A stretch of DNA of 63,018 nt, from UHGV virus genome UHGV-0170870; one strand, 5' to 3'. The DNA comes from a virus. The translations under genes and the position numbers were made by a program. Each line of letters opens with the position of its first letter. The stretch's first letter is position 1. Below the pieces are notes generated by a model, which searched no databases, was not told the DNA's origin, and saw nothing but the letters and a program-made list of their open reading frames with translations. This document shows, piece after piece, positions 21,764-47,795 of the stretch.

Positions 21764-22023
21764 TAGCGTTGCGATTCCAAGAATTTCGCTATGGTGTACG
21801 GTTCAACCGTCACTTTGACGTGGAGGCTGTAATCGTCATCAGCCCAAACCGTTGCGCAGTATCCGTAGATTGAGAGATAGCCCGGAGCAGTCATGTTACT
21901 TTCAACGTGACGCTTGATTACCTCCACGCCTCTATCAACAGTGAAAGCGAAGCTAGGATTGAGACGAGTCAAGAGGTCTGCGACCTCGCGCACATTGCTG
22001 TGATTCCAATTGAGTGCAGGCAT
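21763..22023 (-). CDS. hypothetical protein
   Basis: 86-aa ORF preceded by GAAAGGAAAAC. Confidence 0.4.
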   Translation of the reverse strand: MPALNWNHSNVREVADLLTRLNPSFAFTVDRGVEVIKRHVESNMTAPGYLSIYGYCATVWADDDYSLHVKVTVEPYTIAKFLESQR

Positions 22024-22045
22024 TGGCGTGTTTTCCTTTCTAGGG

Positions 22046-22483
22046 TTAGCGGTGGTAAATCCAACCGCGATAGACTTCGCAGTAAGCTTCGCTGAACGTC
22101 TTAGCGGCCTTGTGGAGCGCGTCGCCCGCGTCGCCTAAACCACGGTCCCAATAGCCAACGCCGTGGCCTTGACGCGAAAACCAAAAGTCATGGCCCGCCT
22201 GCTCTTCGGAGTAGCCATGCGACTCGGCCAAGCGGTCGAGCCATTGCCGGACGAAACAGCCATCCGGCATGATGAAACCGAGAAACGAGTCGCAATCGCT
22301 CGCAATGTCGCGGATTGCTTCGCGCGTGAGTCTCTCGACTCCCAAATCATTCAACCGCGACTCGTTGTCGTCGCCCGTGTCGCCATTGGTGAAAAACACG
22401 GCTTCTACGTATGCCTTCGCGAACGTTGAAAGCTTGTCGTAAGCACGCGGCGCGGGGGTATCGTTCAAGACAAATTCAGGCAT
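22046..22483 (-). CDS. hypothetical protein
   Basis: Start at internal ATG 22483 (MPEFVLND) preceded by GGAAGG; ORF track extends to 22582. Confidence 0.45.
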   Translation of the reverse strand: MPEFVLNDTPAPRAYDKLSTFAKAYVEAVFFTNGDTGDDNESRLNDLGVERLTREAIRDIASDCDSFLGFIMPDGCFVRQWLDRLAESHGYSEEQAGHDFWFSRQGHGVGYWDRGLGDAGDALHKAAKTFSEAYCEVYRGWIYHR

Positions 22484-22487
22484 TGGC

Positions 22488-22898
22488 TCAACCTTCCAAC
22501 TTGGCGCGAAGGTCGGCCATTTCGTTTGCGTGGTTACGTTCTGCGCGCTCGATTGCCGCGCGAGTGATCGCCTTAGCATCAAGCGTGTTCAAGCAATCCC
22601 ACATATCTTTAGTGGCTTGCTCTGATGTGCGGCGCGCGTGTTCTAGATCGCAACGCGAAACCACAGTTCCGAACACGTCAAATATGACGTAGCGAAAGCC
22701 TCGCTTGCGATTCTCAAAGTCGAGTGCATCGCTTGTGACGATTGCGAAAAGCAAACCGTTGTCGACGACTCGCGCGGAGATGACGCGCGACTTGTGGAAT
22801 CGCAAATTATCGTCATCCACGTAATGTGTGCGACCGCAAAGGTTGCGTTGCGCGTTGGTCTTTGGATCATGCGATTCAGTGCGGAAAAGCGTAGTCAT
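22488..22898 (-). CDS. hypothetical protein
   Basis: Start at internal ATG 22898 (MTTLFRTE) directly downstream of hammerhead motif copy 3; ORF track extends to 22991 through the ribozyme. Confidence 0.45.
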   Translation of the reverse strand: MTTLFRTESHDPKTNAQRNLCGRTHYVDDDNLRFHKSRVISARVVDNGLLFAIVTSDALDFENRKRGFRYVIFDVFGTVVSRCDLEHARRTSEQATKDMWDCLNTLDAKAITRAAIERAERNHANEMADLRAKLEG

Positions 22899-22919
22899 GG
22901 CGTTGTTTCCTTTCGACTT

Positions 22920-22972
22920 GGACTCATCAGTGGCCGCGTGACGGCCAGACCGCGCTAGGCGCGGTTTCGTCC
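22920..22972 (-). ncRNA. type II hammerhead ribozyme motif, copy 3
   Basis: Same core; stem I loop UCACG instead of UUACG; followed by RBS and ATG 22898. Confidence 0.8.
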
Positions 22973-23251
22973 TATTTGTCAGGTGACACATACGACACGC
23001 TAGGCGTGCGAAAGCCTTTCACGTTGTGCGAAGTGTAGGAGTCGCGTCGGTTCATTTCACAACCGATAGCGGCAAAGGCGATAACGATACCGATTGAAAC
23101 TGCGACGCAAACCGCGTCGCGCAGTGCTGCAAGGTATGCGCGGACCATTAGCGTGCCCTCGCGATGCAGAACGAAAAGCAAAACCGGCCAATGCGGATAA
23201 ACCGCAAGCCGCCGACTCGTTTTGTGCTGAAATTGATTGCGTTCATGGTGT

Positions 23252-23509
23252 TCACGCTACCGGACGGGATTGGTCGGCGGAAACATTGCACGAAACGACG
23301 CGGTAGAAGTCTCGGCTGTAGCGCGGGCGATCATTTCCGCGCACCGAAGAAAAGGCGAGGCGACGATACATTGCGTCGAAAGCTTCGCTAGGGTCGCGTA
23401 GCCAAAGGCGGGCGATCCAATCGCACCCATTGAGCGTGCAACGAAAGCGAATGTCATAGGCCTTGCGACGCGGTGGCGTTGGCATTGGGCGAAAATTCAA
23501 TTCGGTCAT
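23252..23509 (-). CDS. hypothetical protein
   Basis: Start at internal ATG 23509 preceded by GAAAGGACAAACGCCA; first gene of leftward small-gene cassette. Confidence 0.4.
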   Translation of the reverse strand: MTELNFRPMPTPPRRKAYDIRFRCTLNGCDWIARLWLRDPSEAFDAMYRRLAFSSVRGNDRPRYSRDFYRVVSCNVSADQSRPVA

Positions 23510-24018
23510 TGGCGTTTGTCCTTTCGAGCGTGTCGCCCCCGCGTGTGCGGTGGCAGGTGTGTAAGGTAGCACACCTAACGCATACAGCAAGCGTCTAGTT
23601 CGCCCCTAATGCCTGTATTCGTTGGCTTTCTTGCGTGTTGCGCGCTCGCTTAGCGCGCTCCGACATGCCACGCGCGCCAGCGTCGCGCCTTACGAGGCAT
23701 GCAATGCGCGCATGCAAAGCAAGCCGCGTGCCACGCTCCGCGCTATCGCGCTGTAATAGAGCGTGATGAGCAAGAAACACCGCGATATCAGAGACTTGCT
23801 CGCGTTTGTAACAAACCGTGATCTCGGCCGCGCCGACCCACCCCCTGGGGTGTGGGTCCCTGTCGCCACACCCCCTCCCACCGGGGGCAGTCGCCGCCCC
23901 CGAAAGTCGGCAACGTTTTAGCGAATTTGCTCACTCTTGATCGCACGGGTCGCCCCCGCGAGCTATGCGCCTCACGCGTGAGAAACGTCACCTAACACCC
24001 CCTTTGGAGCCCCCGAAC

Positions 24019-24402
24019 ATGGCAAACACGTCGCATTCGCCTCGTCGCCGGGGCGGTGTTGACGCTTGCGTCAACGAACTACCGAAGACCATCAAGATCG
24101 GTGCCTACGATTGGACGATCTGCATCCGAGATGGAGCGGACGACAAGTACGGTCAAGCCGATTTCGAGTACAGCCAGATCAACATCTGGCCGAGAAACCT
24201 AACGAGCCCCGGTCACGGCGTCGGAATAGTGCTGCATGAATGCCTGCACGTCATATTCGACAACCACGGGCTCGGCAGACTGAAGCGGGATAAAGAGGAT
24301 CGTGAAGAGCAGATCGTTCTCGGCTTCGAGGCGGGCCTGGTCTCGCTGTTCCGCGACAATCCGAAGCTGCTCGTCTGGATGAGGCGGTGGCTTCATGGCT
24401 GA
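24019..24402 (+). CDS. hypothetical protein with HExxH zinc-metallopeptidase-like motif
   Basis: VLHECLHVIF motif; ATG 24019 with GGAG RBS; immediately upstream of terminase small subunit; ORF track starts at 23965. Confidence 0.45.
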   Translation: MANTSHSPRRRGGVDACVNELPKTIKIGAYDWTICIRDGADDKYGQADFEYSQINIWPRNLTSPGHGVGIVLHECLHVIFDNHGLGRLKRDKEDREEQIVLGFEAGLVSLFRDNPKLLVWMRRWLHG

Positions 24403-25036
24403 ACAGTACCCGCGAAAGCTCCCCGCAAAGCAGCTCGCGATACTGTTTGGTGTGAGTGAACAACGAATCTCGCAGCTCAAGCGCAAAGGGAAGCTAAACC
24501 CCGACAGCGCGAACCTCTACGACGTGCAAGAGGCCAAGCAGTTGCGCGGTTTCCAGATGAGCGAGCACGGCGTACGCGTCGTCGCACAAACATACGGCAA
24601 CGGCACCGGCAAGATCGCGCCGCCGAAGGTGACGCCGATGAATGCCGACGTGGTTCTCTCCCCCGAGGATCGCGAGGCACTCGGTATCGAGCCCAATGAG
24701 CAGATCGCGCCGTCGCCAAACAGTCACTTCGTGGCGGCAAGCCGCATCACGGAGCTGCGCGAGCAGAAGATCAAGGCCGAGATCGAGCGTATCGAGACGC
24801 GGGCCAAGAGAGAACGGGGCGAGCTGGTCGAAAGAGCGAAGGTGCAATCGTCGTTCATTGAGGCCGGAGCGCGGATCGCGGCGATCCTTCAGAACTTGCC
24901 TGCCGAGATCGCTTCGATCTTTGCGGACCCCGACAAGAAAGCCGAGGTCCGGCTGAAGGTGCAAACGCGCGTCGATCAGGCGCAGCACACGCTCTACACG
25001 TCAATGCGCGACTACGGAGAAGATGATGCTGGCTGA
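24395..25036 (+). CDS. terminase small subunit (DNA-binding)
   Basis: N-terminal HTH LAILFGVSEQRISQLKRKG; position directly upstream of terminase large subunit. Confidence 0.55.
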   Translation: MAEQYPRKLPAKQLAILFGVSEQRISQLKRKGKLNPDSANLYDVQEAKQLRGFQMSEHGVRVVAQTYGNGTGKIAPPKVTPMNADVVLSPEDREALGIEPNEQIAPSPNSHFVAASRITELREQKIKAEIERIETRAKRERGELVERAKVQSSFIEAGARIAAILQNLPAEIASIFADPDKKAEVRLKVQTRVDQAQHTLYTSMRDYGEDDAG

Positions 25037-26885
25037 CCCATTATTCGCAGGGCTGGCCGAAGGATTGAAGCCGAAGCCTCGGCTGAAGCTGTCTGAGTGG
25101 GCGGAAGCGAACCTAGTGCTGCCGCCTGAACGATCCGCGAGCCCCGGCCCATATCGCATCGGCGACGCGGTCTTCCAACGCGGCATGATGGACGCGATCA
25201 CCGATCCCGACAATGAGGACATCGTCTTCATCACGTCGTCCCAGGTCGGCAAGACGACCATCCTTGTCGCGGCGCAAGGCTACTACTGCGAGGCGGAGCC
25301 GTGCGCGCAGCTCTCGGCGTGGCCTACGCAAGACCTGGCCGACAAGTACCAAGAAGAGTCGTTCGATACCACGGTGAGAGATTCGCCGAAGTGGAGAGCG
25401 GCGATGACTGGCAGCACCGAATATAAGGGCGGCCAGATCAATTTCGTCGGCGCGAACACGCCGAACAAGCTCGCGATGCGGCCCATCCGTGTCGTTACGG
25501 GCGACGAGATCGACCGATGGCCCCTCAGCTCGTCGAAGGAAGGTTCGCCGGTCGAACTCGCCAAGAAGCGACGCACGACATACCACAACCGCAAAGGCCT
25601 GTGGGTGTCGACGCCGGTTCACGAAGACACCAGCGTCATCGTCCAGCTCTTCAAAGAGACGCGGCAACACTACTTCCTCGTTACCTGCCCCGATTGCTCC
25701 GCCAAGCAAGTGCTGAAGTGGGACAACATCGTCTACAAGAAGGGGCAGGAGGAAGACGCGCTCTATCACTGCGACGACTGCGGTGCGCTGTGGACCGAGA
25801 TGACAAAGCGCCGTCTCGTTCGCGAGGGCGAATGGCATCAAGTCGGCACCGTGATCGGCACGCAGAAGGATGGCACGCCGATCCGACTGGCGACCCCGTT
25901 CAAATGCTTCAAGGTAGACGCTGGCGTGACGCCTGCGCGCGAGAAGATCGGTTTCTGGATCAACGAGCTGTATTCGCCGTGGGTCTCGATGCGAGAGATC
26001 GCGAAGGCCTGGTCAGACTCGGAGGGCAACCCCGAGAAAGAACAGACCTTCTACAACACGCGTCTCGGTCTTCCGTATCGCGGCGACATTTCGAGCTTCG
26101 CGGACCCTGAGAACTTGAAGTCGAGGCGTGAGAAGTATGATCCTGAGATCGTGCCGAAGCGCGCGGCGCTGCTCACAGCGGCCGTCGACGTGCAGGACGA
26201 CCGCCTCGAAGTGCTGGTCGTGGCCTGGGGCAAGGGCGATGAGTGCTGGCTTCTGAAGCATCACGTCATCCAGCTCGGCCCGAACACGGACGAAGCGTGG
26301 GACGAACTCGCGAAGTTCCTCGAAAGCGGCTTCAAGCACGAAGGCGCGGCAGGGGAGACGCTCGGCATCTTCTCCGCCACTATCGACTCGGGCTCGGGCG
26401 CGCACACGCAGAAGGTCTACGACTTCAGCAACAAATGGCTGTTGGTCGGACGACGCTGGTACGCGCACAAGGGCGTGCCCGGCGACAAGAAGCCAGTCTG
26501 GATTAAGTCGGAGCAGCGCTTCAAGGACAAGACGAAGCTGTTTCTCGTCGGCACCTACGACGCGAAGGCGACCATCTACACGCGATACGCAAACGCGAAG
26601 GTGGGGCCTGGCTACGTGCATATCCATGAGGGCATCTCGGACGACAAGATCGACCAGATGACCGCTGAGCGCGCGGAGACGGACTACAAAGATGGTTTCC
26701 CCGTTCGAACGTGGACGAAGCCTCGGCATCGTCGAAACGAGATGCTCGATCTCATGGTCTACAACTACGCGGTTCGGTGTTCGGTGAACATCGACATGGA
26801 TCATTGGATCAAGCGGCTCAACACCCCCAAAGAACAACAGCCGAAGCAGCTCAACGCTGCCGACATCGGCAAGCTGTTCAAATAG
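25023..26885 (+). CDS. terminase large subunit (lambda GpA-like)
   Basis: 620 aa; P-loop FITSSQVGKTT; position and size match GpA-type terminases. Confidence 0.8.
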   Translation: MMLADPLFAGLAEGLKPKPRLKLSEWAEANLVLPPERSASPGPYRIGDAVFQRGMMDAITDPDNEDIVFITSSQVGKTTILVAAQGYYCEAEPCAQLSAWPTQDLADKYQEESFDTTVRDSPKWRAAMTGSTEYKGGQINFVGANTPNKLAMRPIRVVTGDEIDRWPLSSSKEGSPVELAKKRRTTYHNRKGLWVSTPVHEDTSVIVQLFKETRQHYFLVTCPDCSAKQVLKWDNIVYKKGQEEDALYHCDDCGALWTEMTKRRLVREGEWHQVGTVIGTQKDGTPIRLATPFKCFKVDAGVTPAREKIGFWINELYSPWVSMREIAKAWSDSEGNPEKEQTFYNTRLGLPYRGDISSFADPENLKSRREKYDPEIVPKRAALLTAAVDVQDDRLEVLVVAWGKGDECWLLKHHVIQLGPNTDEAWDELAKFLESGFKHEGAAGETLGIFSATIDSGSGAHTQKVYDFSNKWLLVGRRWYAHKGVPGDKKPVWIKSEQRFKDKTKLFLVGTYDAKATIYTRYANAKVGPGYVHIHEGISDDKIDQMTAERAETDYKDGFPVRTWTKPRHRRNEMLDLMVYNYAVRCSVNIDMDHWIKRLNTPKEQQPKQLNAADIGKLFK

Positions 26886-26903
26886 CTCCCTCGGAGGGCA
26901 GAC

Positions 26904-36667: not shown

Positions 36668-38965
36668 ATGCAGACTTTCCAGACCGCCGCCGTGGTCGGC
36701 CTGATCGACAATATGTCGGGGCCTCTGAAGCAGTTATCCAACCAGGCGAAGCAGGCCGCGAAGCAAATAGAGCTGATGAAGCTCGACGCTTCCGGCCTGA
36801 ACCAGTACAATCGCGGACTAGTCGACGCGAACTCCCAGGCGAGGCAGCACCTTTCGCATCTCCACTCCATCAAGGCGGCGTGGCGTGAGGTCGGCGGCAT
36901 CGTTGCGGGGGTCGCGTCGAGCTACGCGCTGCACAAGGCGGCGGACGCCGTCAAGAATTACATCCCGCTCGAACGCGAGAATCGCTACATGCGAGCGGTC
37001 GGCGTCCAGCGCGACGAGAACGGGAAGATCAGCGGCTACGGGTATAGCCAGTCTGAGATGGCTGGCCTGCTCGCGCAACAGCGGCGCGGCGCGTTCGATT
37101 ACGGCGAAAGCCCGATTGACGTAGCTCACGCGCAGATGGCGTTCGCGCAGCGGCAAATCTCGGCGCGTACCTCGCAGATCATGACCGACCAAGCGCTCAT
37201 CCTGTCGAAGGCGCTCGGCACGTCGGTCAAAGACGCGGCGGTGATCCTCGAAGGCTCGATCTTCGCGAAGGGTCACTCGCACGAATTAGAGGGCGATCCG
37301 TCGAAGGCCAAAGCCATCGCCAAGCGGTATGCCGACATCGCCGCCGTCATGTCTAAGTCCGGCGCGATGACTGCCGAGGACATCACGCAGTTCGGCAAGT
37401 ATGCCTACTCGGGCGCGAGCGCGGCAGGCATCTCGGACACCACGGTCGCCGCCATCGGTATGGCGTTGAAACGCGCGAACATGCCGGGCCAAGAGTCCGG
37501 TACGATGGTTCGGCAGTTGGCGTCGCGTGTTCTGTCGCCGACGCGAGAAGGCCGCCAGTCGGCTATCGCGAACGGTATCGACATCGACTCGTTCAGCACG
37601 CACGGCCATCTCGACGCCGAGGGCCTGAGCGGCCTGGTGCGCGAACGGTTCGGCAAGACCATCAAGGGTGCGACGCAGAAGGCGATCAACGATGAGCTGA
37701 CCAACGAGGACAGCGACATCGCGGGCAACAAGGGCAAGTTCGTCGAGTTCATCACGAACAAGCTCGAAAAAGAGATGGACATCACGAAGCCTCGCGACCG
37801 CGAACGTCTGGCGAAGGCTGCCGGTGACTACTGGCAGTACAAGCGCGAGGGCGTCAACGGCGACGCGTTGGTCGATGCGCTCATCAAGAAGAGTGGCTTG
37901 CTCGGTCTTCTGCAATATCTTGGCGTGAAGCAGGGCGCTCGCGGCATGGTGCTGACGGGCGACATCAACACGTACGAAGAGAACAAGAAGGCCGTCGAGC
38001 ACGGCGTCGAAGTCGGCCGCGCCGAAGAAGTCGCCAAACAGCGTATGGAAGGCCTGGCCTTCGCCGTCGACAAGCTGAAAGCATCGTTCGAGCAGACCTC
38101 CAACAGTTTCGTCAAGGCGAACGAAGGATGGCTGGCAGCCGCAGCAAACGGCGGCTCGAAGATACTTCAGTTCCTCGATAGCCTTGAAGAGGGCAAGAAG
38201 CAGCGCCTCACGCTGGAAGCGGGCTTCATCACGCTCGTCGGCGCGACCGCTGGCGTCGTGAGGGCGTTCCAGTTGGCGCAATCGACGCTCAACGCCATAG
38301 CGGCCAAGAACGGCGTGCAGGGCTTGCCCGGCGCACCGGGAGCACCGGGCGCACCGGGCGACAAGGCGTCGAAGGCGTTCAAGTTCCTGACCTACGCGCC
38401 CATCGTCGGCGAGGCGGCCTACAGCTATCTCCAATGGTTGACCGAGAACAACCAGAAGAACGTCGACGCGCAGACCAAGAACCCGTCGCCGAACATCGTG
38501 AATATGGGTCGGATCGGAAGTCGCCTCGGCGACCGAGGCCCGATCTCGATCACCGATGGATTCGGGGCCAGCGCGTACGGCGGCAACGAATACCTCGACG
38601 ACCTGGCGCTCTGGCGTCGCAAGGACGGCACAGAGGACTTCCTGCGCAGCGGCGGCAACCAGCCGAACCAGTACGGCGGCCGAGGTCGCGGTGATGGGGC
38701 CGGGTGGACGGATTCGATCCACGCCGTGCCGAAGTCTGATGGCTTCAAGGATGTCAACGTCCAGGGCACCGTGACCGGCGCGGCCGAGCTGCACAACATG
38801 ATGCAGATCGAAGTAAGGCCGTCGCAATACTTCGAGGGCCTCATCAAGCGAGCCGAGAGCGTAGCGACGATGTCGCTCAACGGATCGCTCGGTACCAGCA
38901 TGCAAGGCCCCGGCGACAACGGCACCAAACCCGCAGCGGCAAACGCTCTTACCGGGACGAAGTAA
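36668..38965 (+). CDS. tail tape measure protein
   Basis: 765 aa, alpha-helical repeats, GLPGAPGAPGAPGD collagen-like stretch. Confidence 0.7.
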   Translation: MQTFQTAAVVGLIDNMSGPLKQLSNQAKQAAKQIELMKLDASGLNQYNRGLVDANSQARQHLSHLHSIKAAWREVGGIVAGVASSYALHKAADAVKNYIPLERENRYMRAVGVQRDENGKISGYGYSQSEMAGLLAQQRRGAFDYGESPIDVAHAQMAFAQRQISARTSQIMTDQALILSKALGTSVKDAAVILEGSIFAKGHSHELEGDPSKAKAIAKRYADIAAVMSKSGAMTAEDITQFGKYAYSGASAAGISDTTVAAIGMALKRANMPGQESGTMVRQLASRVLSPTREGRQSAIANGIDIDSFSTHGHLDAEGLSGLVRERFGKTIKGATQKAINDELTNEDSDIAGNKGKFVEFITNKLEKEMDITKPRDRERLAKAAGDYWQYKREGVNGDALVDALIKKSGLLGLLQYLGVKQGARGMVLTGDINTYEENKKAVEHGVEVGRAEEVAKQRMEGLAFAVDKLKASFEQTSNSFVKANEGWLAAAANGGSKILQFLDSLEEGKKQRLTLEAGFITLVGATAGVVRAFQLAQSTLNAIAAKNGVQGLPGAPGAPGAPGDKASKAFKFLTYAPIVGEAAYSYLQWLTENNQKNVDAQTKNPSPNIVNMGRIGSRLGDRGPISITDGFGASAYGGNEYLDDLALWRRKDGTEDFLRSGGNQPNQYGGRGRGDGAGWTDSIHAVPKSDGFKDVNVQGTVTGAAELHNMMQIEVRPSQYFEGLIKRAESVATMSLNGSLGTSMQGPGDNGTKPAAANALTGTK

Positions 38966-40324
38966 ATGACCTGTCTCTGCATTGACGACCTGCGCCCCGC
39001 CTCGTTTCGGGGCGTAGGTTTCTTCGTGGCGTCCGACCAGGGCGAATACGGGCGGCGCGGCCCGGTCCATGAGTACCCGAACCGCGACAACCCGTACTTC
39101 GAAGACCTCGGGGAGAAGGCGCGCAAGTTCACCGTCAACGGCTACCTGTTCGGCGACGATTGGGTGTCGAAGAAGGACGCAATCGTTGCCGCCTGCACTG
39201 CGCGCGGCCCGGCGATCCTACAGCTCCCGACCGAGGGAGCCACGATGGTTGCGTGCCAAAACCTGTCGGTCTCGCGCACGAAAGACGAGTGCGGCTACTA
39301 CGCTCTGAAGTTCCAGTTCGTCGTCGCGAGCTTCTCCGCGCCTGGCGCTATAGCAGCCGAGTTCGAGAGCCTGATCGGCAGCATCTTCAGCGCTGCGATC
39401 CCGACGTTCACGACGTTCTTCGACAACACGTACGTTCCGCGCAACACGCTGAACTTCGTGTCCGAGAACATGACGGATCGCATCTCGCAGTACAGCTCCG
39501 ACGTGGTCTCGGCTATCGAGGGCATGCCGACGAACAACCCGACGCTGGCTACCGACGTGGTCCAGGCGGGTGTCAGCATCTTCCAGAACGCCGCGACCTA
39601 TGCGCAGCCCGGCACTGATAGTGGTGCTGTGCTCGCTCAACAGACGATACCTGCGCAGACCATCGCGGCCATAGCGAACGATACGGGCGTTACGAAGATC
39701 GGCGACAGCGGCGTCACGATCCAGACCGGCGCGGCTGCCATCGTTCCAATGATCGCCTACACGATCAACGGCATCGGGAACGCACTGACGAGCGACGTGG
39801 TCATTCCGACCTTGACGAGCTTCGCGACGTGGAGCGTCAACGAGGTCAGCCTGGCAGACTTGCAGGCGCAGGTCGACGCGTTAGATACGCCGACCGCCGC
39901 GCCGATCAGCGCGTCTGACACGGCCGACGCCGTCAATAGCACCGTGTTCTGTGGTGTGGTCCGGTCGTTCGCCTTGATGAAGCTCGCGCAGGCGATCTGC
40001 GCCAAGACGTTCTTGACGCGGAAGGAAGCCATCCAGGCACGCGCCACCGTCGTCGAGCTGTTCAACGCGCAGATCGAGCAGTTCGCGGAAGACGAGATCG
40101 TCAACATCATGCTCACCGCTCGCGACTACGCCGTGCGGTCGATTACGCAGAAGATGGCGACCATCGTGCCGGTCATCACGATCACGGCCCCGCAGTCCCG
40201 GCCGTCGCTCTATTGGGCGGCGCGTCTCTACGAAGATGTCTACCGAGCCGAAGAGCTGGCCGACCGTAACGAGGTCGCGTCACCAGCCTTCATGCCTGGC
40301 ACATTCGAGGCGCTCGCGCGGTAA
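38966..40324 (+). CDS. DNA circulation protein (Mu gp43-like)
   Basis: 452 aa immediately after tape measure as in Mu-like tail modules. Confidence 0.55.
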   Translation: MTCLCIDDLRPASFRGVGFFVASDQGEYGRRGPVHEYPNRDNPYFEDLGEKARKFTVNGYLFGDDWVSKKDAIVAACTARGPAILQLPTEGATMVACQNLSVSRTKDECGYYALKFQFVVASFSAPGAIAAEFESLIGSIFSAAIPTFTTFFDNTYVPRNTLNFVSENMTDRISQYSSDVVSAIEGMPTNNPTLATDVVQAGVSIFQNAATYAQPGTDSGAVLAQQTIPAQTIAAIANDTGVTKIGDSGVTIQTGAAAIVPMIAYTINGIGNALTSDVVIPTLTSFATWSVNEVSLADLQAQVDALDTPTAAPISASDTADAVNSTVFCGVVRSFALMKLAQAICAKTFLTRKEAIQARATVVELFNAQIEQFAEDEIVNIMLTARDYAVRSITQKMATIVPVITITAPQSRPSLYWAARLYEDVYRAEELADRNEVASPAFMPGTFEALAR

Positions 40325-40360
40325 CCGTGCGGGCGTCCTCGCCAGAGGATCAGCCCGTAC

Positions 40361-41443
40361 ATGTCCGACGAAAAAACGACAGTCACGCTCATTGCGGGCG
40401 GGGCGCGCTACTCCGCGTTCACGCGGGCAGCCGTGTCCTACTCCGCCAACCAGGCCGTGCGCGCCTTCGCCTTCACGGTGACCGACGCCACGGACGCGAT
40501 GGACGAGCAGTGGAATTTCATGCCGGGCACGCCCGTAACCGTGCTCGCCAACGGTCAGCTCCTAGTGACTGGCTACATCAACCGGATGGTGCCGAGCTTC
40601 GACGCGAACAACCACACCGTCGAGATTTCGGGCACGTCCAAGGGCCGCGACAGCGTCAAGAGCGCGGCCGAGCACGATAAAGGCGAGTGGCGCAACAAGA
40701 CGCCGCTTCAGATCGCGCAAGAGCTGGATAAGCAGGGAGTGGGGTTCACTTCCGATATCCAACAGAAGCCCTTCGAGTATGCGCGCTTGCACCCGAACGA
40801 AACGGTCTTCGAGGCCGTAGAGCGCATGACGCGCCGCCAGCCGATGCTTCTTCAAGGCATGCCGGACGGCTCGATCAAGATGACGAAGGGCGGCTCGGCC
40901 GGATCGAACTCTCCGCTGATGGAGGGCATCAACATCCTGGCTGGCAGCGCCGCATTCGACGATGGCGACCAGCACAGCGAATACAAGGTCAAGGGGCAGC
41001 GCGTCTACGGGACCGACAAGAAGTCGCTTCAGATCGTTGCCACGGAGAAGGACCCGTCTGTCAAGCGCCATCTCCCCAAGCACATTCACCAAGAGTCTGA
41101 CATCGACGAGCAGACCGCGAAGGATCGCGCCCGCCATCACAAGAACCGCCAGCAAGGCGAGAGCGTCACGGCGCAGATCAAGTCGCAGTCGTGGTTCGAT
41201 CTCGGCGGTCAACTCTGGAAGGCAAACGGCCTTGTCTACGTTCAGTCACGCGTCCTGAAGCTCAGCCAACAGATGCTCATCAAGAGCGTCTCGCTCACGC
41301 AAGATGAGAGCGGATCGTTCGCGACCCTCTCGCTCGTTCTGCCGCAGGCGTTCGACGGCGAGGGCACCGGCATGGGCGGAGGCGGCGCAGGCTCCGGCGC
41401 GCAATCCCCGTGGAAAGACTTCGCGCAACCTACGGACCTCTGA
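40361..41443 (+). CDS. tail/baseplate hub protein (Mu gp44 / P-like)
   Basis: 360 aa, position in Mu-like order. Confidence 0.55.
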   Translation: MSDEKTTVTLIAGGARYSAFTRAAVSYSANQAVRAFAFTVTDATDAMDEQWNFMPGTPVTVLANGQLLVTGYINRMVPSFDANNHTVEISGTSKGRDSVKSAAEHDKGEWRNKTPLQIAQELDKQGVGFTSDIQQKPFEYARLHPNETVFEAVERMTRRQPMLLQGMPDGSIKMTKGGSAGSNSPLMEGINILAGSAAFDDGDQHSEYKVKGQRVYGTDKKSLQIVATEKDPSVKRHLPKHIHQESDIDEQTAKDRARHHKNRQQGESVTAQIKSQSWFDLGGQLWKANGLVYVQSRVLKLSQQMLIKSVSLTQDESGSFATLSLVLPQAFDGEGTGMGGGGAGSGAQSPWKDFAQPTDL

Positions 41444-41444
41444 C

Positions 41445-41945
41445 ATGGAAGACTACTACACTCACCGCAACTCCGGTCATCGGTATCTGATCCGGAAGGT
41501 CGACGACGAGGGCGACATTCAGCTCATCGACGCGGATGGCCTGGCCGACGAACAGCACACCAAGATCATGCGGGTGTATCCACATGGCTTCAGCTCGAAC
41601 TCGCCTGAAGAATCTCACATGCTCGCTCTTGGCCTTGGTGGTCGGCGCGATCTTCTTGTTGCGTTGGGCGGCGAGCACCCGAAGTACCGGCCGCGCAAAC
41701 TGCCGACAGGCAACGCGGTCCTCTACGACGACAAGGGCAACGTAGTCTGGTCGAAGGGCAAGGACGGTCTGTCCGTCAATGCGAAGACCGGCACGGTGGA
41801 GATTCGCTCCCAGGACAACAAGATCACGGTCAAGCCTGGTGACGGCCAGAAGGTCTTCCTCGGCGGCGACGGCTCGGATGGCTCGTACGCAAAGGTCATG
41901 ACCGAGAGCGGCCCGTCGATCAACGTGTACGCCAAGATCGGATAG
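41445..41945 (+). CDS. baseplate assembly protein V-like (spike)
   Basis: Start at ATG 41445 overlapping upstream stop; ORF track starts at 41304. Confidence 0.55.
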   Translation: MEDYYTHRNSGHRYLIRKVDDEGDIQLIDADGLADEQHTKIMRVYPHGFSSNSPEESHMLALGLGGRRDLLVALGGEHPKYRPRKLPTGNAVLYDDKGNVVWSKGKDGLSVNAKTGTVEIRSQDNKITVKPGDGQKVFLGGDGSDGSYAKVMTESGPSINVYAKIG

Positions 41946-41952
41946 GCCACAC

Positions 41953-42492
41953 ATGGACATCCGCATGAGAGAAACAGAGGGCTACGGCGATCAGCCGTTC
42001 CTTCTGTGGGACACCTATTGGAACTCAGACGATCTCAGTACGTGGTACGCGGACTGGAAGCTGGCAGGGCCGAACGCCCCGCTCAATGCCTACGGGCTGG
42101 CTGCCGATCATGCGCTCAACACGGCGATCCTGATTTCCCTTTTCACCTGGCGTCGAGCCGAAGTCTACGACCAGCTCCCCTCGGGCACCGATCCGAAGGG
42201 CTGGTGGGGCGACAACATTGATCTCGACGAGAACGAAACGAAGCTCGGTTCGCGCCTCTGGTTGCTGTACCGCTCGCCGCTCAACACCGAAACGGCCAGG
42301 AAGGCAGAGGACTACGCTTACGAAGCGTTGCAACCGCTGATCGACCAAGGGGCTGTTGCGAAGTTCGTCTGTAGCGCGACTGTCGATGTCGTGCCCGGCC
42401 ATCTCGTCTTGGACGTGAAAGCCTACAGCCAAAGCGGCCAGCTCATCTACGACCAGAAGTTCGACCGCATCTGGCGGCAGGAGTTTCCGTAA
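41953..42492 (+). CDS. baseplate protein (Mu gp46-like)
   Basis: 179 aa, Mu-like order. Confidence 0.5.
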   Translation: MDIRMRETEGYGDQPFLLWDTYWNSDDLSTWYADWKLAGPNAPLNAYGLAADHALNTAILISLFTWRRAEVYDQLPSGTDPKGWWGDNIDLDENETKLGSRLWLLYRSPLNTETARKAEDYAYEALQPLIDQGAVAKFVCSATVDVVPGHLVLDVKAYSQSGQLIYDQKFDRIWRQEFP

Positions 42493-43586
42493 TGGCATTC
42501 TACATGCCCGACATCAAGGCGATGGTGGTGCGCGCTCGCAACGCGTTCAGGGCGGAGACGCCCGGCACTGACGCCTTCATCTGGCCGAACAACATCTACG
42601 TCAGCGCCAAGGTAATCGGCGGCGCGGTGTGGGAAGTGTTCGGCCGCCTCAAATGGATGGACCGGCAACGGTTCGCCATGACCGCCACGGGCGACGAGCT
42701 GGAACGTCATGGTGCCGATTATGGCATCTCACGCAAGCCCGCATCGTACTCGCAGGGCAATGTGGTCGTGGTGGCTGACACCTGGCCGCTGACAGTCGCA
42801 CAGGGGACAGTCTTCACGCGCAGCGATGGCGTTCAGTTCACGTCGACGCTCGCGAAAGACATCGGAAAATATTCGCTGAGCGCGACCATTCCAGTCGTGT
42901 GCAACGTGGCAGGTAAGTCAGGCAACACAACTTACGGCGCACCGCTCTCGACGAACATCGCGCATCTCACGGCCGTCAACGTTGACGATGTCGGTCTCGG
43001 CCAGGGCGCGGATCAGGAGACGGACGATCAGCTCCGCGAGCGCATCCTGGCGCGCAAGCGATACCCTCCGCATGGTGGGGCCGACTTCGATTACATCGCG
43101 TGGGCGAAGGAACTGCCAGGCGTTACGCGGGCGTTCGTGAAGGCCAATGCCTTCGGCCGTGGCACGGTCGGCATTTGGTTCTTGATGGACGACACGTACG
43201 TTGCTGGCATTCCGCAGGCGGCGGACGTTGCGGCCGTGCAGGCGCATATCGACGGGCTGAAGCCGACCACGGCGATCCCTATCGTTCAAGCGCCGGTCGC
43301 GGACTGCATCGACATCGTCATCCAAGACCTGAAGCCCGACACGCAGGCCGTTCGCGAAGCGGTGGCCGCCGAACTACAAACGATGTTCCGGCGCGAGACG
43401 GTGCCGAGCATCCCTGGCGATCTCTTCACGCTCTCGCGGTCGTGGATCGAACAGGCGGTCAGCAATGCGACCGGCGAGCGTAGCAACACGGTGTTCGCCC
43501 CGTCGACTGACATCACGTTCGGCCCCGGCATCATGCCGTGCCTGCGGAGCGTGACCTTCACCAAGAGCAGCAACACTAGCAGCTAG
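42492..43586 (+). CDS. baseplate J-like protein (Mu gp47-like)
   Basis: 364 aa, Mu-like order. Confidence 0.6.
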   Translation: MAFYMPDIKAMVVRARNAFRAETPGTDAFIWPNNIYVSAKVIGGAVWEVFGRLKWMDRQRFAMTATGDELERHGADYGISRKPASYSQGNVVVVADTWPLTVAQGTVFTRSDGVQFTSTLAKDIGKYSLSATIPVVCNVAGKSGNTTYGAPLSTNIAHLTAVNVDDVGLGQGADQETDDQLRERILARKRYPPHGGADFDYIAWAKELPGVTRAFVKANAFGRGTVGIWFLMDDTYVAGIPQAADVAAVQAHIDGLKPTTAIPIVQAPVADCIDIVIQDLKPDTQAVREAVAAELQTMFRRETVPSIPGDLFTLSRSWIEQAVSNATGERSNTVFAPSTDITFGPGIMPCLRSVTFTKSSNTSS

Positions 43587-43594
43587 GATACACC

Positions 43595-44695
43595 ATGCCT
43601 GTGCTTTCATGCCCGCAGGGGCCACAGGACCCGCATTGGTGTCCGCAGAACACCGACGACGCCTTGCCCGCCGTGCTTGGTCTCATGCCGCCTGGTCCGG
43701 CCTGGGATGGCGCGGCGGTTGAGGGTACGGTCCAGAACTCCTATTGGAGAGCATACGCTAACGTGCTCTCCTACACCTACCAACGGCTCTGCAAGTACGT
43801 CGACGAGTTCTTCTGCAAGACGGTCAACGAGTCGCTCGATCAGTGGATCGCAGAGTACGGGTTAGACGACGAGTGCGATCCGTACGGCCATAACCTGTGC
43901 ATCAAGGTCGCGGCGCAAGGCGGCGCTACGTGCGATTATTTCGTGCAGATGGCGCAGCTCTCGGGCTGGTCGATCACCTGCGAAGACACGACGGATATCC
44001 CCGAGCCCATCGCCGGATGCTTCGAGGTCGGATGCACGCCTCTCGGTCCCACGCCGACGTATGCCGGTTATGGCAGCATGATCGGATACGGTCAGCGGCA
44101 GCCCTGCGATTACGGCGAAGTCGTCCACCATCCCGATCCGGATAAGTGGGAGAACGGCTACACCAACGGGGCGTCGTGCCTGGTGCCTGGTAGCAATCTC
44201 GGCCAGGGGCCGGACACTGACGAGTCGTGTTGCTTCATCTGCGGCTACTACGATTTCAACCCGCCCGACAACGTCGCACCGTCCAGCACGTACTGCCAGG
44301 ACGAGGCGCTGCGCTTCGACTTCGAGTGCCCGCGCACCGACGTTCCGTCCGATGGCGTCATCACACCCAAGCTGCACACCGCTGGCGCGTATGACGACAA
44401 CGGAAACTACAGTGAGTGGGGGCACGCGTTCGTGTGGACGGTGACTGTCGACCTGGCGGCCTCGCAAGCGGCGCAAGCCGCGCAAGCAGCCGCAGCGCCG
44501 AACACCGATCCGGGCAGTCAGGCCGGTTGTCTGATGGCGGGCAACATCACCTTCCCGAATGCCGATGGTGAGATCGGCGGAACACCCATCTGCAACGATA
44601 ACACGGTCGGCGACACGCCGACGTTCGTGCTGTGCTTTCTCAACCGCATCAAGCCCGCACACACCGTGTTGAACGTGGAAATTCTTCAGCCATGA
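43595..44695 (+). CDS. tail protein (Mu gp48-like), unusually Cys-rich
   Basis: 366 aa with many Cys residues; precedes tail fiber. Confidence 0.45.
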   Translation: MPVLSCPQGPQDPHWCPQNTDDALPAVLGLMPPGPAWDGAAVEGTVQNSYWRAYANVLSYTYQRLCKYVDEFFCKTVNESLDQWIAEYGLDDECDPYGHNLCIKVAAQGGATCDYFVQMAQLSGWSITCEDTTDIPEPIAGCFEVGCTPLGPTPTYAGYGSMIGYGQRQPCDYGEVVHHPDPDKWENGYTNGASCLVPGSNLGQGPDTDESCCFICGYYDFNPPDNVAPSSTYCQDEALRFDFECPRTDVPSDGVITPKLHTAGAYDDNGNYSEWGHAFVWTVTVDLAASQAAQAAQAAAAPNTDPGSQAGCLMAGNITFPNADGEIGGTPICNDNTVGDTPTFVLCFLNRIKPAHTVLNVEILQP

Positions 44696-46170
44696 GTCTT
44701 TTCGGACCTCAGAACGCCAACGCTGCGACTGCATTGCCTGATGGCACGCAGCGCCAGCGCTACGGCGCGCAACAGACGTATGTGAAGGACGCGTCAGCGC
44801 CCGGTATGTCAGACGGTACGGTGCTCGATGCGGCTTTCTACAACCGCATCATCTCCAATCTTGAGTACGTCGTATCCCAGGGTGGCGCAGCGGGCTTGCC
44901 TCCTGGCAGCGTGAACGCCCTGCACCAAGGCATTCTCGGCGTAATCGGGGAGGGTGCGCCAGGAAACCTTCAGACGGTCGCGCAGCTCGCGGCTGCCATC
45001 AACGACGATCCCCAGGTGTGGACGACGCTTACCGGCCAGATCAATGCTTGCGTCCGGTTCGACAAGAATCAGACGTTGTCTCCCTCGCAGGTTTTGCAGT
45101 TCCAGCAGAACGTAAAGCTGATGAACGTGGCGTTCACTGGCAACTATGCCGACCTGAACGGCAAGCCAGCGTTGGGTTCGGCCGCGTTCCTGAATGTCGG
45201 TACTGGTGCCAACCAGATCGTGCAGCTTGGCTCGGATAGCAAACTCCCTGCTATCGACGGGTCTAAGCTGACTGGCATCGCATCGACGCAAGTCTCGGGG
45301 CTCGGAACGGCTGCGACGAAGAACGTAGGCGTGGCGGCTGGCAACGTCGTTCAGCTCGACGCCACGACTGGTAAGCTGCCCGCTGTCGACGGTTCGCAGC
45401 TCACCAACATCAGCGTGGCGGGAGTCGTGCAGCCGGTGCTCGGGCAGTGCCGTCTCTCGCTCAACGGCGGCAATCTCTCGCTCAACCGTTTTCGAGGCAA
45501 GTATCTGACGGTAGCGGGCACACCCTGCATCATTCCGTCAGCGGGTGTCACGCTCGCGGCGACCGGGCTGACCGCTGGAACGCTTTACTACATCTACGCC
45601 ACGCAAAGCGGCGGCACAGTCAACGCTCTCGTAGCGTCGACGAACGGACACTCTACCGACACCACAGCCGGTAACGAGGGCGTTGAGATCATGACCGGCG
45701 ACAACACGAAGACCCTTGTCGGCATGGCCCGCCCCATCGCTGGTCCTGCGTGGACGGACACTAGCTCCCAACGTTTTGTTCGGTCGTGGTTCAATCGACC
45801 GCCGCTGCGGATGACGGGGGCGCAGACAGGCAGCAGTGTGGGGCTCAACGCTACGCCGCAAGAGCTGGCTGGGCCGTCGCGCTGTGAGTTTTTGGCGTGG
45901 GCAGATGAGGGCGGAGATTTCAGCGTATCGGGGGGCTACTACTCGTCGACCGCTGGTTTGATCGCTTCGCTGCTTGTGTTTCTCGACAACTCGCAGACCG
46001 GCTACGCGTCAACGGCTAACACAGACGGCAGCGGCCGTGTGCTGCCTCTTTCGACGCGCGTAGCGCTGAGTCCGTTCACGGAAGGATACCACTACGTCAC
46101 GCCAGCGGGTTCGGTCAGCTCGGGCTCGGCGTTCGCCTACAACGTTTGGGTAGCGGGCTCGGTTCATTAA
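44692..46170 (+). CDS. tail fiber protein
   Basis: Start at ATG 44692 (ATGA overlap); Gly/Ala/Thr/Ser-rich repetitive sequence; N-terminal FGPQ motif; ORF track starts at 44632. Confidence 0.55.
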   Translation: MSLFGPQNANAATALPDGTQRQRYGAQQTYVKDASAPGMSDGTVLDAAFYNRIISNLEYVVSQGGAAGLPPGSVNALHQGILGVIGEGAPGNLQTVAQLAAAINDDPQVWTTLTGQINACVRFDKNQTLSPSQVLQFQQNVKLMNVAFTGNYADLNGKPALGSAAFLNVGTGANQIVQLGSDSKLPAIDGSKLTGIASTQVSGLGTAATKNVGVAAGNVVQLDATTGKLPAVDGSQLTNISVAGVVQPVLGQCRLSLNGGNLSLNRFRGKYLTVAGTPCIIPSAGVTLAATGLTAGTLYYIYATQSGGTVNALVASTNGHSTDTTAGNEGVEIMTGDNTKTLVGMARPIAGPAWTDTSSQRFVRSWFNRPPLRMTGAQTGSSVGLNATPQELAGPSRCEFLAWADEGGDFSVSGGYYSSTAGLIASLLVFLDNSQTGYASTANTDGSGRVLPLSTRVALSPFTEGYHYVTPAGSVSSGSAFAYNVWVAGSVH

Positions 46171-46212
46171 GACCGCGCCTCCCCAAAACAATTCCCCAGG
46201 AGACACCATCAC

Positions 46213-47289
46213 ATGACTGGTACAGCGTTTGGGCCGCAAGGCCCGAACTATTCGACCGCGCGCCCGCCTGCCGACCCGAAGGCCAGTGCGGGCACTGATA
46301 CGTGGTTCAAGAACTGTTCGGCCGCTGGCGCGAAGGACGGCACGTTCGCGACGGCCGACTTCTTCAACGTCTTCATCGGCAACCTCCGCTACCTTGTGCG
46401 CCAAGCAGGCGTCACGCTCGACGACGCCACGGACACGATGGTCTATCAGGCCGTGCTGTCCATGATCCAAGCGAACATGGGCGGCGGTGGAGGCGGCACG
46501 CCGACTGTTGGCACGGTGCCGTATGGCAACCCGACGCTTTACGTTCGGACGGACGGCAACGACGCAACGGCTGACGGCTCCGCGAATACGTCCGCCAAGG
46601 CGTTCGCTACGATCCAGGCCGCGCTCAATTACGCGCAGAACATCTGGTCGCTCGGCGGCAAAATCCTGAATATTCAGCTCGGCAACCCCGGAACGTATGT
46701 CGGGTTTGTCACCGTCGTCGCCCCGATGACCGGCGTCAACATCGTTGGTGATCCGGCGAACCAGTCGGCCTACGTCATCCAGGCCCCGCCGACGCTCACC
46801 GGCTACTCCGCGCTCGTTTACGCGGGTGGTGCTGCTCTGAACTTGCGTGGTCTCACCGTCTATACCACGCGCACCGACATGCAGTTGATCCAGGCTGCGT
46901 ACACCGGCACGATCTCGATGAGCAACGTGACGGCGCAGTTCGGTGCTACCTCGCCGAACTATCATATCAACGGCGTCAGCGGCGGCTCGGTCAATATCAA
47001 AGGCAACGTCAACATTCAGGGCAACAGTGCCTCGGCGCTCTCGGCGCAGGTTGGCGGAAGCGTTTCGGTGCAGACAAGTTGCACGGTGACGTTGGTCGGC
47101 ACCCCGGCGTTCTCGGTCGGCACCATATACGCCGGAGCGGTTGGCTCGGTCTATCTGGTCGGCGGCTTCAGCGGAACGGCGACCGGCCCTGCCTACTACG
47201 GTTATCAGAGCGGTGCGTTCCTCACGGGCGGCAAGACAATCCCCGGCAGCACCGCTGGCGTTCTCGCTTCAGGAGCTACCTTCTCATGA
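46213..47289 (+). CDS. second tail fiber / receptor-binding protein (beta-helix-like)
   Basis: N-terminal FGPQGPNYS motif shared with first fiber; Gly/Thr/Ser/Val-rich repeats. Confidence 0.45.
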   Translation: MTGTAFGPQGPNYSTARPPADPKASAGTDTWFKNCSAAGAKDGTFATADFFNVFIGNLRYLVRQAGVTLDDATDTMVYQAVLSMIQANMGGGGGGTPTVGTVPYGNPTLYVRTDGNDATADGSANTSAKAFATIQAALNYAQNIWSLGGKILNIQLGNPGTYVGFVTVVAPMTGVNIVGDPANQSAYVIQAPPTLTGYSALVYAGGAALNLRGLTVYTTRTDMQLIQAAYTGTISMSNVTAQFGATSPNYHINGVSGGSVNIKGNVNIQGNSASALSAQVGGSVSVQTSCTVTLVGTPAFSVGTIYAGAVGSVYLVGGFSGTATGPAYYGYQSGAFLTGGKTIPGSTAGVLASGATFS

Positions 47290-47795
47290 CCTTGTTTTCT
47301 ACCCCTTTCAACCCGATGAACTGGTACTTCCTGTCGGAAGACGGTCGCATCTACAGCACCGCTACGATGTCACTCGTCGCGGCGAGCGACGCCGCCTTCC
47401 AGGCGTGGCAGTCGATGGGGCTGGTGCCGTCGCCCTGGCCGGGTAACGGCGCGGCCAACCAGACGGAGGACACGATCCGCGCGCAGCTCGTCCCGTACGG
47501 CTGGCCCTGCGGCGACATCTCGCTCCGTCAGTTCTTCCAACAGCTCGCCATCGCGGGGATCATCACGCAGGACGAAGCGCTCGCGGTCTATGACAACCGG
47601 CGCACGCTGCCCGCGAAGATCGAGACGGTGGTTGCGGCGATGTCGGCGAACGACGCGTTCGATGCCCGCATGCACCTGCTCGGCGGACAGACCGTGGAGC
47701 GCAATCATCCGATGGTGAAGATTTTCTGCACGTCACAGAACATGACGCCGCTGGATATCGACGCGTTCTTCCGGGCCGCAGGGGCGCTGCACTAA
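47286..47795 (+). CDS. putative tail fiber assembly protein
   Basis: Start at ATG 47286 overlapping fiber stop; position-based; ORF track starts at 47079. Confidence 0.35.
   Translation: MTLFSTPFNPMNWYFLSEDGRIYSTATMSLVAASDAAFQAWQSMGLVPSPWPGNGAANQTEDTIRAQLVPYGWPCGDISLRQFFQQLAIAGIITQDEALAVYDNRRTLPAKIETVVAAMSANDAFDARMHLLGGQTVERNHPMVKIFCTSQNMTPLDIDAFFRAAGALH

Follow-up and report, generated by a model that had tools for sequence, protein, structure and literature searches.

Genes of the virion region

UHGV-0170870 is a virus genome of 63,018 nucleotides, and this whole stretch of DNA is called the window here. Between positions 24,019 and 47,795 it carries a lambda-type packaging and head block (24.4–33.2 kb), then a Mu-type tail block running from gp38/DUF2635 through gp48 (34.1–44.7 kb), and then two fibre genes. 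The plus strand from 24.0 to 47.8 kb is a single unbroken run of tightly packed, co-directional genes; several stop and start codons overlap, and the third-position GC content (GC3) of the virion genes is uniformly high (0.71–0.86). We consider it very probable that the region serves as the late operon for building the virions of a temperate Bradyrhizobium phage of about 63 kb, which carries an integrase and which we predict to be a myovirus.

Families were called with Pfam above its curated cut-offs and with PHROGs profiles, and the genes were compared directly with lambda, Mu and other phages by local tblastn. Eight head/connector genes and eleven tail genes could be assigned to families above curated cut-offs. 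The packaging and head genes are as follows (E-values in brackets).

24019–24402 (+): 127-aa protein of unassigned function, upstream of the terminase genes and also called in an identical chromosome copy; phrog_1233, unknown function (1.7e-11)
24395–25036 (+): small terminase subunit; phrog_57 (1.5e-12), without a Pfam match
25026–26885 (+): large terminase, lambda GpA type; GpA_ATPase PF05876 (1.8e-60), GpA_nuclease PF20454 (5.4e-79)
26904–27215 (+): W-like head–tail adaptor (Ad1); phrog_75 (9e-6), positioned as lambda W
27209–28822 (+): portal, lambda family; Phage_portal_2 PF05136 (4.8e-64), 30% identity to lambda B
28822–30165 (+): S49 head-maturation protease; Peptidase_S49 PF01343 (2.5e-32) at residues 134–279 of 447, 34% identity to lambda C
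30194–30601 (+): head decoration protein, gpD type; HDPD PF02924 (3.9e-16)
30657–31742 (+): major capsid protein (MCP), gpE type; Phage_cap_E PF03864 (3e-65), 28% identity to lambda E
31824–32853 (+): three small genes (94, 87 and 145 aa) between capsid and stopper; weak matches only
32831–33223 (+): FII-like head closure protein (stopper); Phage_attach PF05354 (6e-9), phrog_82 Hc1 (9.8e-9)

The two domains of the large terminase scored far over their cut-offs (205 bits for PF05876, 266 bits for PF20454), and the protein matched lambda A at 28% identity over residues 9–595. Together with it, the portal, S49 protease and capsid matched lambda A, B, C and E at 28–34% identity; none of the four found anything in Mu by tblastn. 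The order portal, S49 protease, gpD, gpE is collinear with lambda B, C, D and E. The stopper also cleared its Pfam threshold (36.8 bits for PF05354; cut-off, 26). By analogy, the long C-terminal part of the S49 protease is probably a scaffold comparable to that of lambda C, and a terminase of the Nu1/GpA type suggests cos-type packaging. The three small genes matched phrog_16445, phrog_6420 and, below its cut-off, the PF23148 Gp77 adaptor family (0.0028); from their position, they probably encode head-completion or neck proteins.

The tail genes are these.

34062–34250 (+): Mu gp38-like protein, directly preceding the sheath gene as Mup38 does; DUF2635 PF10948 (7.5e-10)
34273–35751 (+): contractile tail sheath, Mu L/gp39 type; Phage_sheath_1 PF04984 and Phage_sheath_1C PF17482, 36% identity to Mu L over residues 3–480
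35843–36220 (+): tail tube; Tail_tube PF10618 (4.3e-7)
36231–36527, to 36661 if frameshifted (+): tail assembly chaperone; Phage_TAC_7 PF10109
36668–38965 (+): tape measure; PhageMin_Tail PF10145 (1.9e-13)
38966–40324 (+): Mu gp43-like tube initiator ("DNA circulation" protein); DNA_circ_N PF07157 (3.5e-24), with a direct match to Mu gp43
40361–41443 (+): baseplate hub (Mu gp44/P); GpP-like domains PF21683, PF22255 and PF21929, 28% identity to Mu gp44
41445–41945 (+): central spike (Mu gp45); Phage_Mu_Gp45 PF06890 (7.7e-16)
41953–42492 (+): baseplate wedge 1 (Mu gp46); GP46 PF07409 (3.2e-30), 42% identity to Mu gp46
42492–43586 (+): baseplate wedge 2 (Mu gp47, J-like); Baseplate_J PF04865 (1.5e-56), 32% identity to Mu gp47
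43595–44695 (+): baseplate wedge 3 (gp48-like), 366 residues; phrog_203, baseplate wedge (8.5e-16), at the gp48 position in the order

The DUF2635, sheath, tube, chaperone and tape-measure genes stand in Mu order, and all of them exceeded the Pfam cut-offs. The homologues of the sheath, gp43, gp44, gp46 and gp47 matched Mu at 28–42% identity and found nothing in lambda (tblastn). Because the tail families are Mu-specific ones (DUF2635, DNA_circ_N, GpP, Gp45 and GP46), we predict a contractile tail of the Mu type; a P2-type tail was rejected on the strength of the same Pfam matches. The cryo-electron microscopy structure of Mu identifies gp43 as a tube initiator and gp46, gp47 and gp48 as the wedges of a "simple baseplate" (PMC11915804); the tube-initiator role given above to the 38966–40324 protein follows from that assignment.

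A preliminary description of this DNA, made from the letters and their open reading frames (ORFs), had proposed that head genes in lambda order, from small terminase to capsid, are followed by tail genes in Mu order, from the sheath through a gp48-like protein to the fibres. Both orders were borne out: the head by Pfam and PHROGs families and by tblastn matches in lambda with none in Mu, the tail by Mu-specific Pfam families and by matches in Mu with none in lambda. All of the named genes lie on the plus strand, in the order described, within 24019–47795. The comparison of gene order and the annotation with profile hidden Markov models, which had been suggested as a check, returned a head of lambda type and a tail of contractile type; a head of another lineage or a non-contractile tail was not seen.

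Programmed frameshifting is usual in tail chaperone genes. A candidate −1 site, CTGGGGGAATAG, lies at about 36510–36520 in the chaperone gene, whose 3' end reads CTG GGG GAA TAG; beyond it, the −1 frame stays open for some 45 further codons, to just before the tape-measure gene. The relative L007 keeps both the G-run and the −1 peptide (ELRYWYD..KRNE), and its +1 frame is closed there. The chaperone is thus probably extended by a −1 frameshift and made in two forms.

The head–tail junction

The physical join between the two blocks is a single gene, with the FII-like stopper gene adjoining it upstream and the DUF2635 gene downstream.

33220–34065 (+): tail terminator, 281 aa, phrog_12983; gpU-like fold over approximately residues 1–175, plus a C-terminal extension of about 100 aa

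Homologues of this protein were gathered in 64 clusters. A profile search with the family against the PDB gave no match, and the protein's sequence matched neither Mu gp37 nor p11 of the Serratia phage BZS1; the fold search alone succeeded. An AlphaFold2 model (mean predicted local distance difference test [pLDDT] score, 74; mostly 76–91 over the N-terminal 175 residues) was compared with the PDB using Foldseek. Lambda gpU was the best match (3fz2/3fzb; E ~1e-5, probability 1.00, target-normalised template modelling score 0.64–0.70), and the next matches were terminators or collars from further siphoviruses and myoviruses (R4C, Chi, T5, the myoviruses Milano and 7-7-1, the pyocin R2 collar and T4 gp15). 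Since the best fold matches are gpU and then other terminators and collars, the model identifies the protein as the tail terminator. In myoviruses, an extended C-terminus of the terminator binds the sheath (PMC11915804), and the extension of about 100 residues fits such a role by analogy.

The connector therefore comprises the portal, the W-like adaptor, the FII-like stopper and this terminator. In Mu, the connector has no stopper; gp36 and gp37 are used instead, gp37 being the terminator (PMC11915804). Neither the gp36 adaptor nor the gp37 terminator (phrog_490) had a counterpart in the window by tblastn or PHROGs. The terminator function of Mu gp37 is taken here by the gpU-fold protein.

The Cys-rich gp48-like protein

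The preliminary description had called the last wedge protein gp48-like and unusually rich in cysteine. The second statement was confirmed: 20 of its 366 residues are cysteines, i.e. 5.5% compared with about 1% across the module. The first stood in part. The PHROGs profile agrees with it, but the protein reached 25 bits against PF10076, whose cut-off is 37.4 (several homologues do carry a precomputed PF10076 match), and it resembles gp48 at its ends only. Positions 27–133 of the family align with Mu gp48 residues 9–119 (hhalign, E 7e-4), and a C-terminal motif, C-x-L-x2-[IY]-K-P-A-H, aligns with Mu residues 147–170 (PDB 9ki1). Between these ends lies an insertion of about 190 residues (approximately 132–320), located between Mu residues ~119 and ~147.

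The cysteines are a conserved feature of the family. About 18 Cys columns are kept in at least 24 of 29 homologues (41–73% identity), the members have 11–25 cysteines each, and about 11 of the conserved ones lie in the insertion itself. Most of the conserved cysteines form near-neighbour pairs (6/16, 66/74, 94/102, 113/129, 142/147, 234/245 and 333/347), and the protein has no CxxC motifs; this pattern suggests disulfides more than metal clusters. When used alone as a query against 1.84 billion representative proteins, the insertion retrieved only 24 relatives, which with few exceptions are gp48-sized and carry it at the same position. The AlphaFold2 model of the protein (mean pLDDT 56, with residues 139–272 below 50) was unusable for a fold search or for Cys geometry.

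In Mu gp48, residues 133–155 form the fibre-docking loop (PMC11915804). The Cys-rich insertion falls at the position of this 23-residue loop, and by analogy it is likely to be the site of fibre attachment. A bolder proposal, which we regard as doubtful, is that the loop became a cross-linked platform of about 190 residues on which two receptor-binding proteins are mounted by one shared N-terminal anchor domain. If true, a simple Mu-type baseplate would here hold dual fibres in a manner that has not been described before. The only mildly novel element of the region is this pair of receptor-binding proteins that share an anchor domain and lie beside an enlarged docking domain; it draws attention to a rare Cys-rich expansion at a Mu-type fibre-docking site.

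The fibre genes

The three genes that complete the region follow the gp48-like gene directly.

44692–46170 (+): fibre-like protein 1, 492 aa; ATGA overlap, with the start codon within the gp48 stop
46213–47289 (+): fibre- or spike-like protein 2, 358 aa; N-terminal domain in common with fibre 1, full-length orthologue in L007
47286–47795 (+): 169-aa protein; ATGA overlap with the fibre 2 stop, phrog_6034, unknown function (1.4e-6)

The two fibre-like genes had been described as sharing only an N-terminal FGPQ motif. They do share the N-terminus, but what they have in common is a domain of 82 residues (38% identity, E 2e-11). The pair also occurs in L007, where gene 1 keeps the N-terminal 200 residues with a different C-terminus and gene 2 is conserved throughout. 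Residues 273–484 of fibre 1 match tail proteins of Rhizobium and Bradyrhizobium phages, and residues 162–241 match an annotated tail fibre of Puniceispirillum phage HMO-2011; sequence searches with fibre 2 returned no informative match. The position of the two genes, the conservation of the pair in a relative and the partial matches of fibre 1 argue that both are fibre genes. The 169-aa protein weakly matches (E 1.8e-5) a DUF4376 protein at the same place in L007, and its position makes it possibly a fibre assembly factor. Downstream of the fibre genes lie the lysis genes, which encode a holin, a lysozyme and an Rz-like protein.

Genome, host and distribution

Phage genes fill the entire window, and there are no host genes within it. 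Contigs from other samples (L015 and L016; 63,071–63,073 bp) cross the junction between the window's end and its start at 99.9–100% identity, and their lengths equal 63,018 bp plus a terminal overlap of about 53–55 bp. Such contigs continue across that junction with 100% identity, which makes the window a circularly permuted form of the complete phage genome of 63,018 bp.

An integrated copy and the integrase gene define a likely attachment region.

53619–53887: attP (phage attachment) region, within which similarity to the integrated copy L017 ends
53888–55018 (−): tyrosine integrase; PF00589

The integrated element lies in a 7.57-Mb chromosome (GCA_054653515.1, L017) and is adjoined by host genes (LTXXQ, DctM). 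Since its similarity to the window stops at ~53,802, we place the crossover site about 90 nt beyond the integrase stop codon, and we read the window as the excised (attP) form. Besides the virion genes, the window encodes a DUF2800 nuclease, an SNF2 helicase, Prim-Pol/AAA_25, PolA, an Enc34-type single-stranded DNA-binding protein (SSB), an extracytoplasmic function (ECF) sigma factor and the tyrosine integrase. No transposase family was found among the ORFs scanned in the window. A transposable, Mu-like phage was rejected: the integrase is present, a transposase was not found and the head is of lambda type.

Exact-sequence look-ups and the names of exact-protein clusters point to Bradyrhizobium as the host (B. 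viridifuturi, sp. WCU1 and sp. 17-4), and an identical 21 kb was found within a 7.5-Mb Bradyrhizobium chromosome. The same 21 kb is 100% identical in three assemblies labelled Streptomyces iakyrus, Phycicoccus jejuensis and Bradyrhizobium sp. WCU1, and a profile scan of contigs matched only mislabelled assemblies (Streptomyces, Phycicoccus and a metagenome-assembled genome of Eggerthellaceae). The capsid, sheath and gp48-like proteins are each recorded on 349–455 contigs, whose labels include E. coli, Klebsiella, Moraxella, Acinetobacter, Aspergillus fumigatus, Quercus suber, Lactobacillus, Streptococcus pneumoniae, Streptomyces and others; for the SSB protein, the sequence collection has entries in 692 blocks. 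This Bradyrhizobium lineage is a well-known contaminant. We conclude that the phage is a widespread sequencing contaminant that accompanies Bradyrhizobium (B. viridifuturi group). For contamination screening, this means that a complete 63-kb phage genome sits mislabelled in assemblies of many unrelated organisms.

These observations also bear on whether the virion module, intact as it is in sequence, belongs to a defective or cryptic prophage that yields no infectious particles. The unusual fibre genes and the putative assembly factor of 169 aa, which has no assigned family, would fit this possibility, but all of the ORFs are full length with high GC3. The phage recurs as stand-alone circular contigs of ~63 kb, with an attP-type junction beside the integrase, in many unrelated samples, as would be the case if, after excision, its replication or packaging raised it above the copy number of the host chromosome; an integrated copy with host flank exists as well. 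We therefore judge a defective prophage to be improbable.

Proposed assembly

The steps of the following scheme are drawn by homology to lambda and Mu; the frameshift, the cos ends and the docking of the fibres are predictions within it. Lambda-type machinery would package the DNA and assemble the head: a Nu1/GpA terminase, the portal, the S49 protease with its probable scaffold, gpE and gpD. The W-like adaptor and the FII-like stopper would then close the filled head. The tail would be made separately, with the hub (gp44), the spike (gp45) and the tape measure nucleating the baseplate, and the gp43-like tube initiator and the wedges gp46, gp47 and gp48-like completing it. The tape measure would set the length to which tube and sheath polymerise, with assistance from the chaperone, probably in two forms produced by the −1 frameshift. 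A hexameric gpU-fold terminator may cap the tube and sheath and offer a docking surface to the FII-like stopper; through it, a head of lambda type would fit a tail of Mu type. The fibres likely attach at the Cys-rich insertion of the gp48-like wedge protein.

Several points weigh against this reading of the region. The contractility of this phage's tail is a prediction from homology. A homologue of the FI packaging chaperone was not found among the three small ORFs at 31824–32853 using Pfam, PHROGs or tblastn with lambda, and these ORFs (31.8–32.9 kb) had no firm family match in Pfam or PHROGs. Likewise, the two fibre proteins and the 169-aa protein gave no significant family match (Pfam, PHROGs) and no PDB sequence match. 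The assignment of gp48 draws on a sub-threshold Pfam match and weak PDB matches, and the docking role of its insertion is read from position, the AlphaFold2 model being unusable. Finally, GGGGGAA, the putative frameshift site, departs from the canonical XXXYYYZ heptamer.

Other features of the window

Just upstream of the terminase genes, the stretch 20000–24000 has a lower GC content (0.57 vs. ~0.62) and holds small minus-strand ORFs only, all without family matches. If there is a cos site, it should lie near the right end of this stretch. At its gathering thresholds, Rfam gave no match anywhere in the window. Below those thresholds, a direct repeat of about 85 nt, in three copies spaced ~1–1.2 kb apart between the small minus-strand genes, matched the type II hammerhead ribozyme RF02276 in each copy, with the core CGAAAC...GUC...CUGAUGA (27.5–30.1 bits vs. 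37; E 0.003–0.014 in a 4.1-kb search). The antisense RNA family ctRNA_pGA1, RF00236, was matched at 41.4 bits (gathering score, 45; E 5.5e-6) by a segment with two hairpins and a U-run.

20333–20414 (−): ctRNA_pGA1-like antisense RNA match
20709–20775, 21703–21763, 22911–22972 (−): hammerhead-like repeat copies
49437–51291 (+): 441-aa metallophosphoesterase/exonuclease-like protein, phrog_284 (1.6e-31), and CHAP-domain protein, PF05257 (2.6e-10), downstream of the lysis genes
55993–57837 (−): ORF without a family match, length-polymorphic at 56514–56524
58229–58879 (−): ECF-type sigma factor, Sigma70_r2/r4_2
58731–61067 (−): family-A DNA polymerase, 29% identity to that of Burkholderia phage BcepNazgul

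The CHAP peptidase, encoded beyond the lysis cassette, may act as another lytic enzyme or as a virion-associated one. Copies of the phage differ in the length of the ORF at 55993–57837: its product is 614 aa long in the window but 596 aa in several other assemblies, and a further assembly has 610 aa. BLAST pieces overlap by ~50 nt at 56514–56524; together, these observations suggest a variable tandem repeat. The ECF-type sigma factor gene adjoins that of the polymerase.

Comparison with known phages and the age of the combination

A megablast search of the 23.8-kb region against 50,697 phage records gave no match, and the relatives were found at the protein level. Two cultured phages, Serratia phage vB_SspM_BZS1 (MT843275; BZS1) and Citrobacter phage phiNP (OR565852), have the same virion gene order, from a Nu1-like terminase to Mup48 and fibres, and 12 or 13 of the window's virion proteins match theirs collinearly at 25–40% identity. 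The capsid search and the sheath search of the phage collection each returned BZS1. Like phiNP, it is temperate and has a contractile tail by electron microscopy, and BZS1 has 5' cohesive ends of 12 nt (PMC7556043, PMC6456863). The combination is therefore not new: it is already present in cultured, imaged phages.

Outside the virion module, the phages differ. The genomes of BZS1 and phiNP are ~45 kb long and carry lambdoid early genes (antiterminator Q, Dam and a lambda-type holin), whereas the 63-kb phage described here has its own PolA, Prim-Pol/AAA_25 helicase, SNF2 protein, DUF2800 nuclease and ECF sigma factor. Neither the early, replication and lysogeny genes nor the nucleotide similarity that members of a genus or family would share were found between them and the window; the replication module is a different one. 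Within the module, BZS1 and phiNP have protease and scaffold as separate genes, a protein of phrog_6774 at the terminator position rather than phrog_12983, a short gp48 (201–224 aa, 4–6 Cys) and one fibre set.

The term "mosaic" in the preliminary description holds for the joining of a lambda-type head to a Mu-type tail, but it is apt only in a deep evolutionary sense, as the join is ancestral: BZS1, phiNP and metagenomic relatives have it too. Three metagenomic relatives of the terminator (53%, 42% and 35% identity) combine a lambda-type portal, S49, HDPD and Cap_E with the terminator and a Mu-type series from the sheath to gp47/48. Head and tail have, moreover, diverged about equally within each relative. 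In L021, identities to the window are 64% for the MCP, 60% for the portal, 60% for the sheath and 56% for the tube; in BZS1, they are 34% for the MCP, 32% for the large terminase and 34% for the sheath. This parallel divergence points to co-inheritance from an ancestor that had both modules, and we interpret the lambda-head, Mu-tail design as an old, stable architecture, ancestral to the whole lineage.

A young hybrid, in which recombination in this phage or its immediate ancestors joined a lambda-like head to a Mu-like tail, would draw on the separate affinities of the two modules among cultured phages. The nearest capsid relatives there are siphoviruses (Xanthomonas phage Seregon, Xylella phages Salvo and Sano, and Burkholderia phage BcepNazgul; 37–38%), and the nearest sheath relative, Paraburkholderia phage IPK (40%), has no detectable match to any head protein of the window. 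Tails of other kinds are also found on lambda-type heads, P2-type in KLER1-1 and siphoviral in lambda and BcepNazgul, so that exchange of modules must have happened at some time. A recent join is nevertheless very unlikely: the three metagenomic relatives keep the same order of head, terminator and tail, the head and tail identities are similar within L021 and within BZS1, and base composition has no break at the junction. Least credible of all are two side-by-side elements (a siphophage remnant and a Mu-derived tailocin or contractile injection system) or an assembly chimera: although Mu-type tails are reported to have been co-opted as R-type bacteriocins in Pseudomonas syringae (PMC4542187), and identical sequence under many unrelated organism labels shows the public records to be contaminated, no second tail module or siphovirus tail genes were found in the window, the stopper and terminator sit exactly between head and tail, cultured phages with the same module make complete myovirus particles, the sequence closes to a circle of 63,018 bp, and both the 21 kb assembled independently, with full identity, in three assemblies and the hundreds of contigs bearing the capsid, sheath and gp48-like proteins speak against a chimera.

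The ancestral combination can be set beside its two namesakes. In relation to lambda, the series Nu1-A-W-B-C/Nu3-D-E-FI-FII is represented by the same families in the same order (A, B, C and E by direct matches at 28–34% identity; D, W and FII by profile), but FI was not detected, three extra small genes stand between E and FII, and a contractile tail follows the head block instead of Z-U-V-G-T-H. In relation to Mu, the tail has the same gene order and families from gp38 (DUF2635) to gp47, followed by the gp48-like protein, and the same simple baseplate composition. The phage lacks the Mu head and any gp36 or gp37 sequence, and a tyrosine integrase with attP replaces the transposase. Its fibre genes, which did not match Mu S or U, are unrelated to them. 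The invertible G segment of Mu is absent, and the larger ORFs adjoining the fibre genes showed no invertase or recombinase family. The gp48-like protein is twice as long as Mu gp48, with the Cys-rich insertion added.

Among cultured phages, the closest capsid, portal and protease are those of BcepNazgul and its relatives (Casjensviridae) and of Xylella phages Sano and Salvo (MCP 37–38%, portal 33%, protease 37%). All of these are siphoviruses with non-contractile tails and gave no match to the tail proteins of the window; at 29% identity, their family-A DNA polymerase is a relative of the one here. Other phages have one module in common with the window. Pararheinheimera phage vB_PsoM_KLER1-1 combines a lambda-type head with a P2-type tail, and Shigella phages SfI, SfIV and SfV and Bordetella phage PBb001 combine a Mu-type tail with a head of neither Mu nor lambda type. 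In SfV, this head is of the HK97 type.

A literature search found no paper that used both of the phrases "lambda-like head" and "Mu-like tail". The discovery value of the region is small all the same: head and tail combinations across lineages are known, and this exact pairing has already been cultured and imaged. What the comparison adds is that the design reaches from phages of enterobacteria to one of Bradyrhizobium, with the gpU-fold terminator as its compatibility piece.

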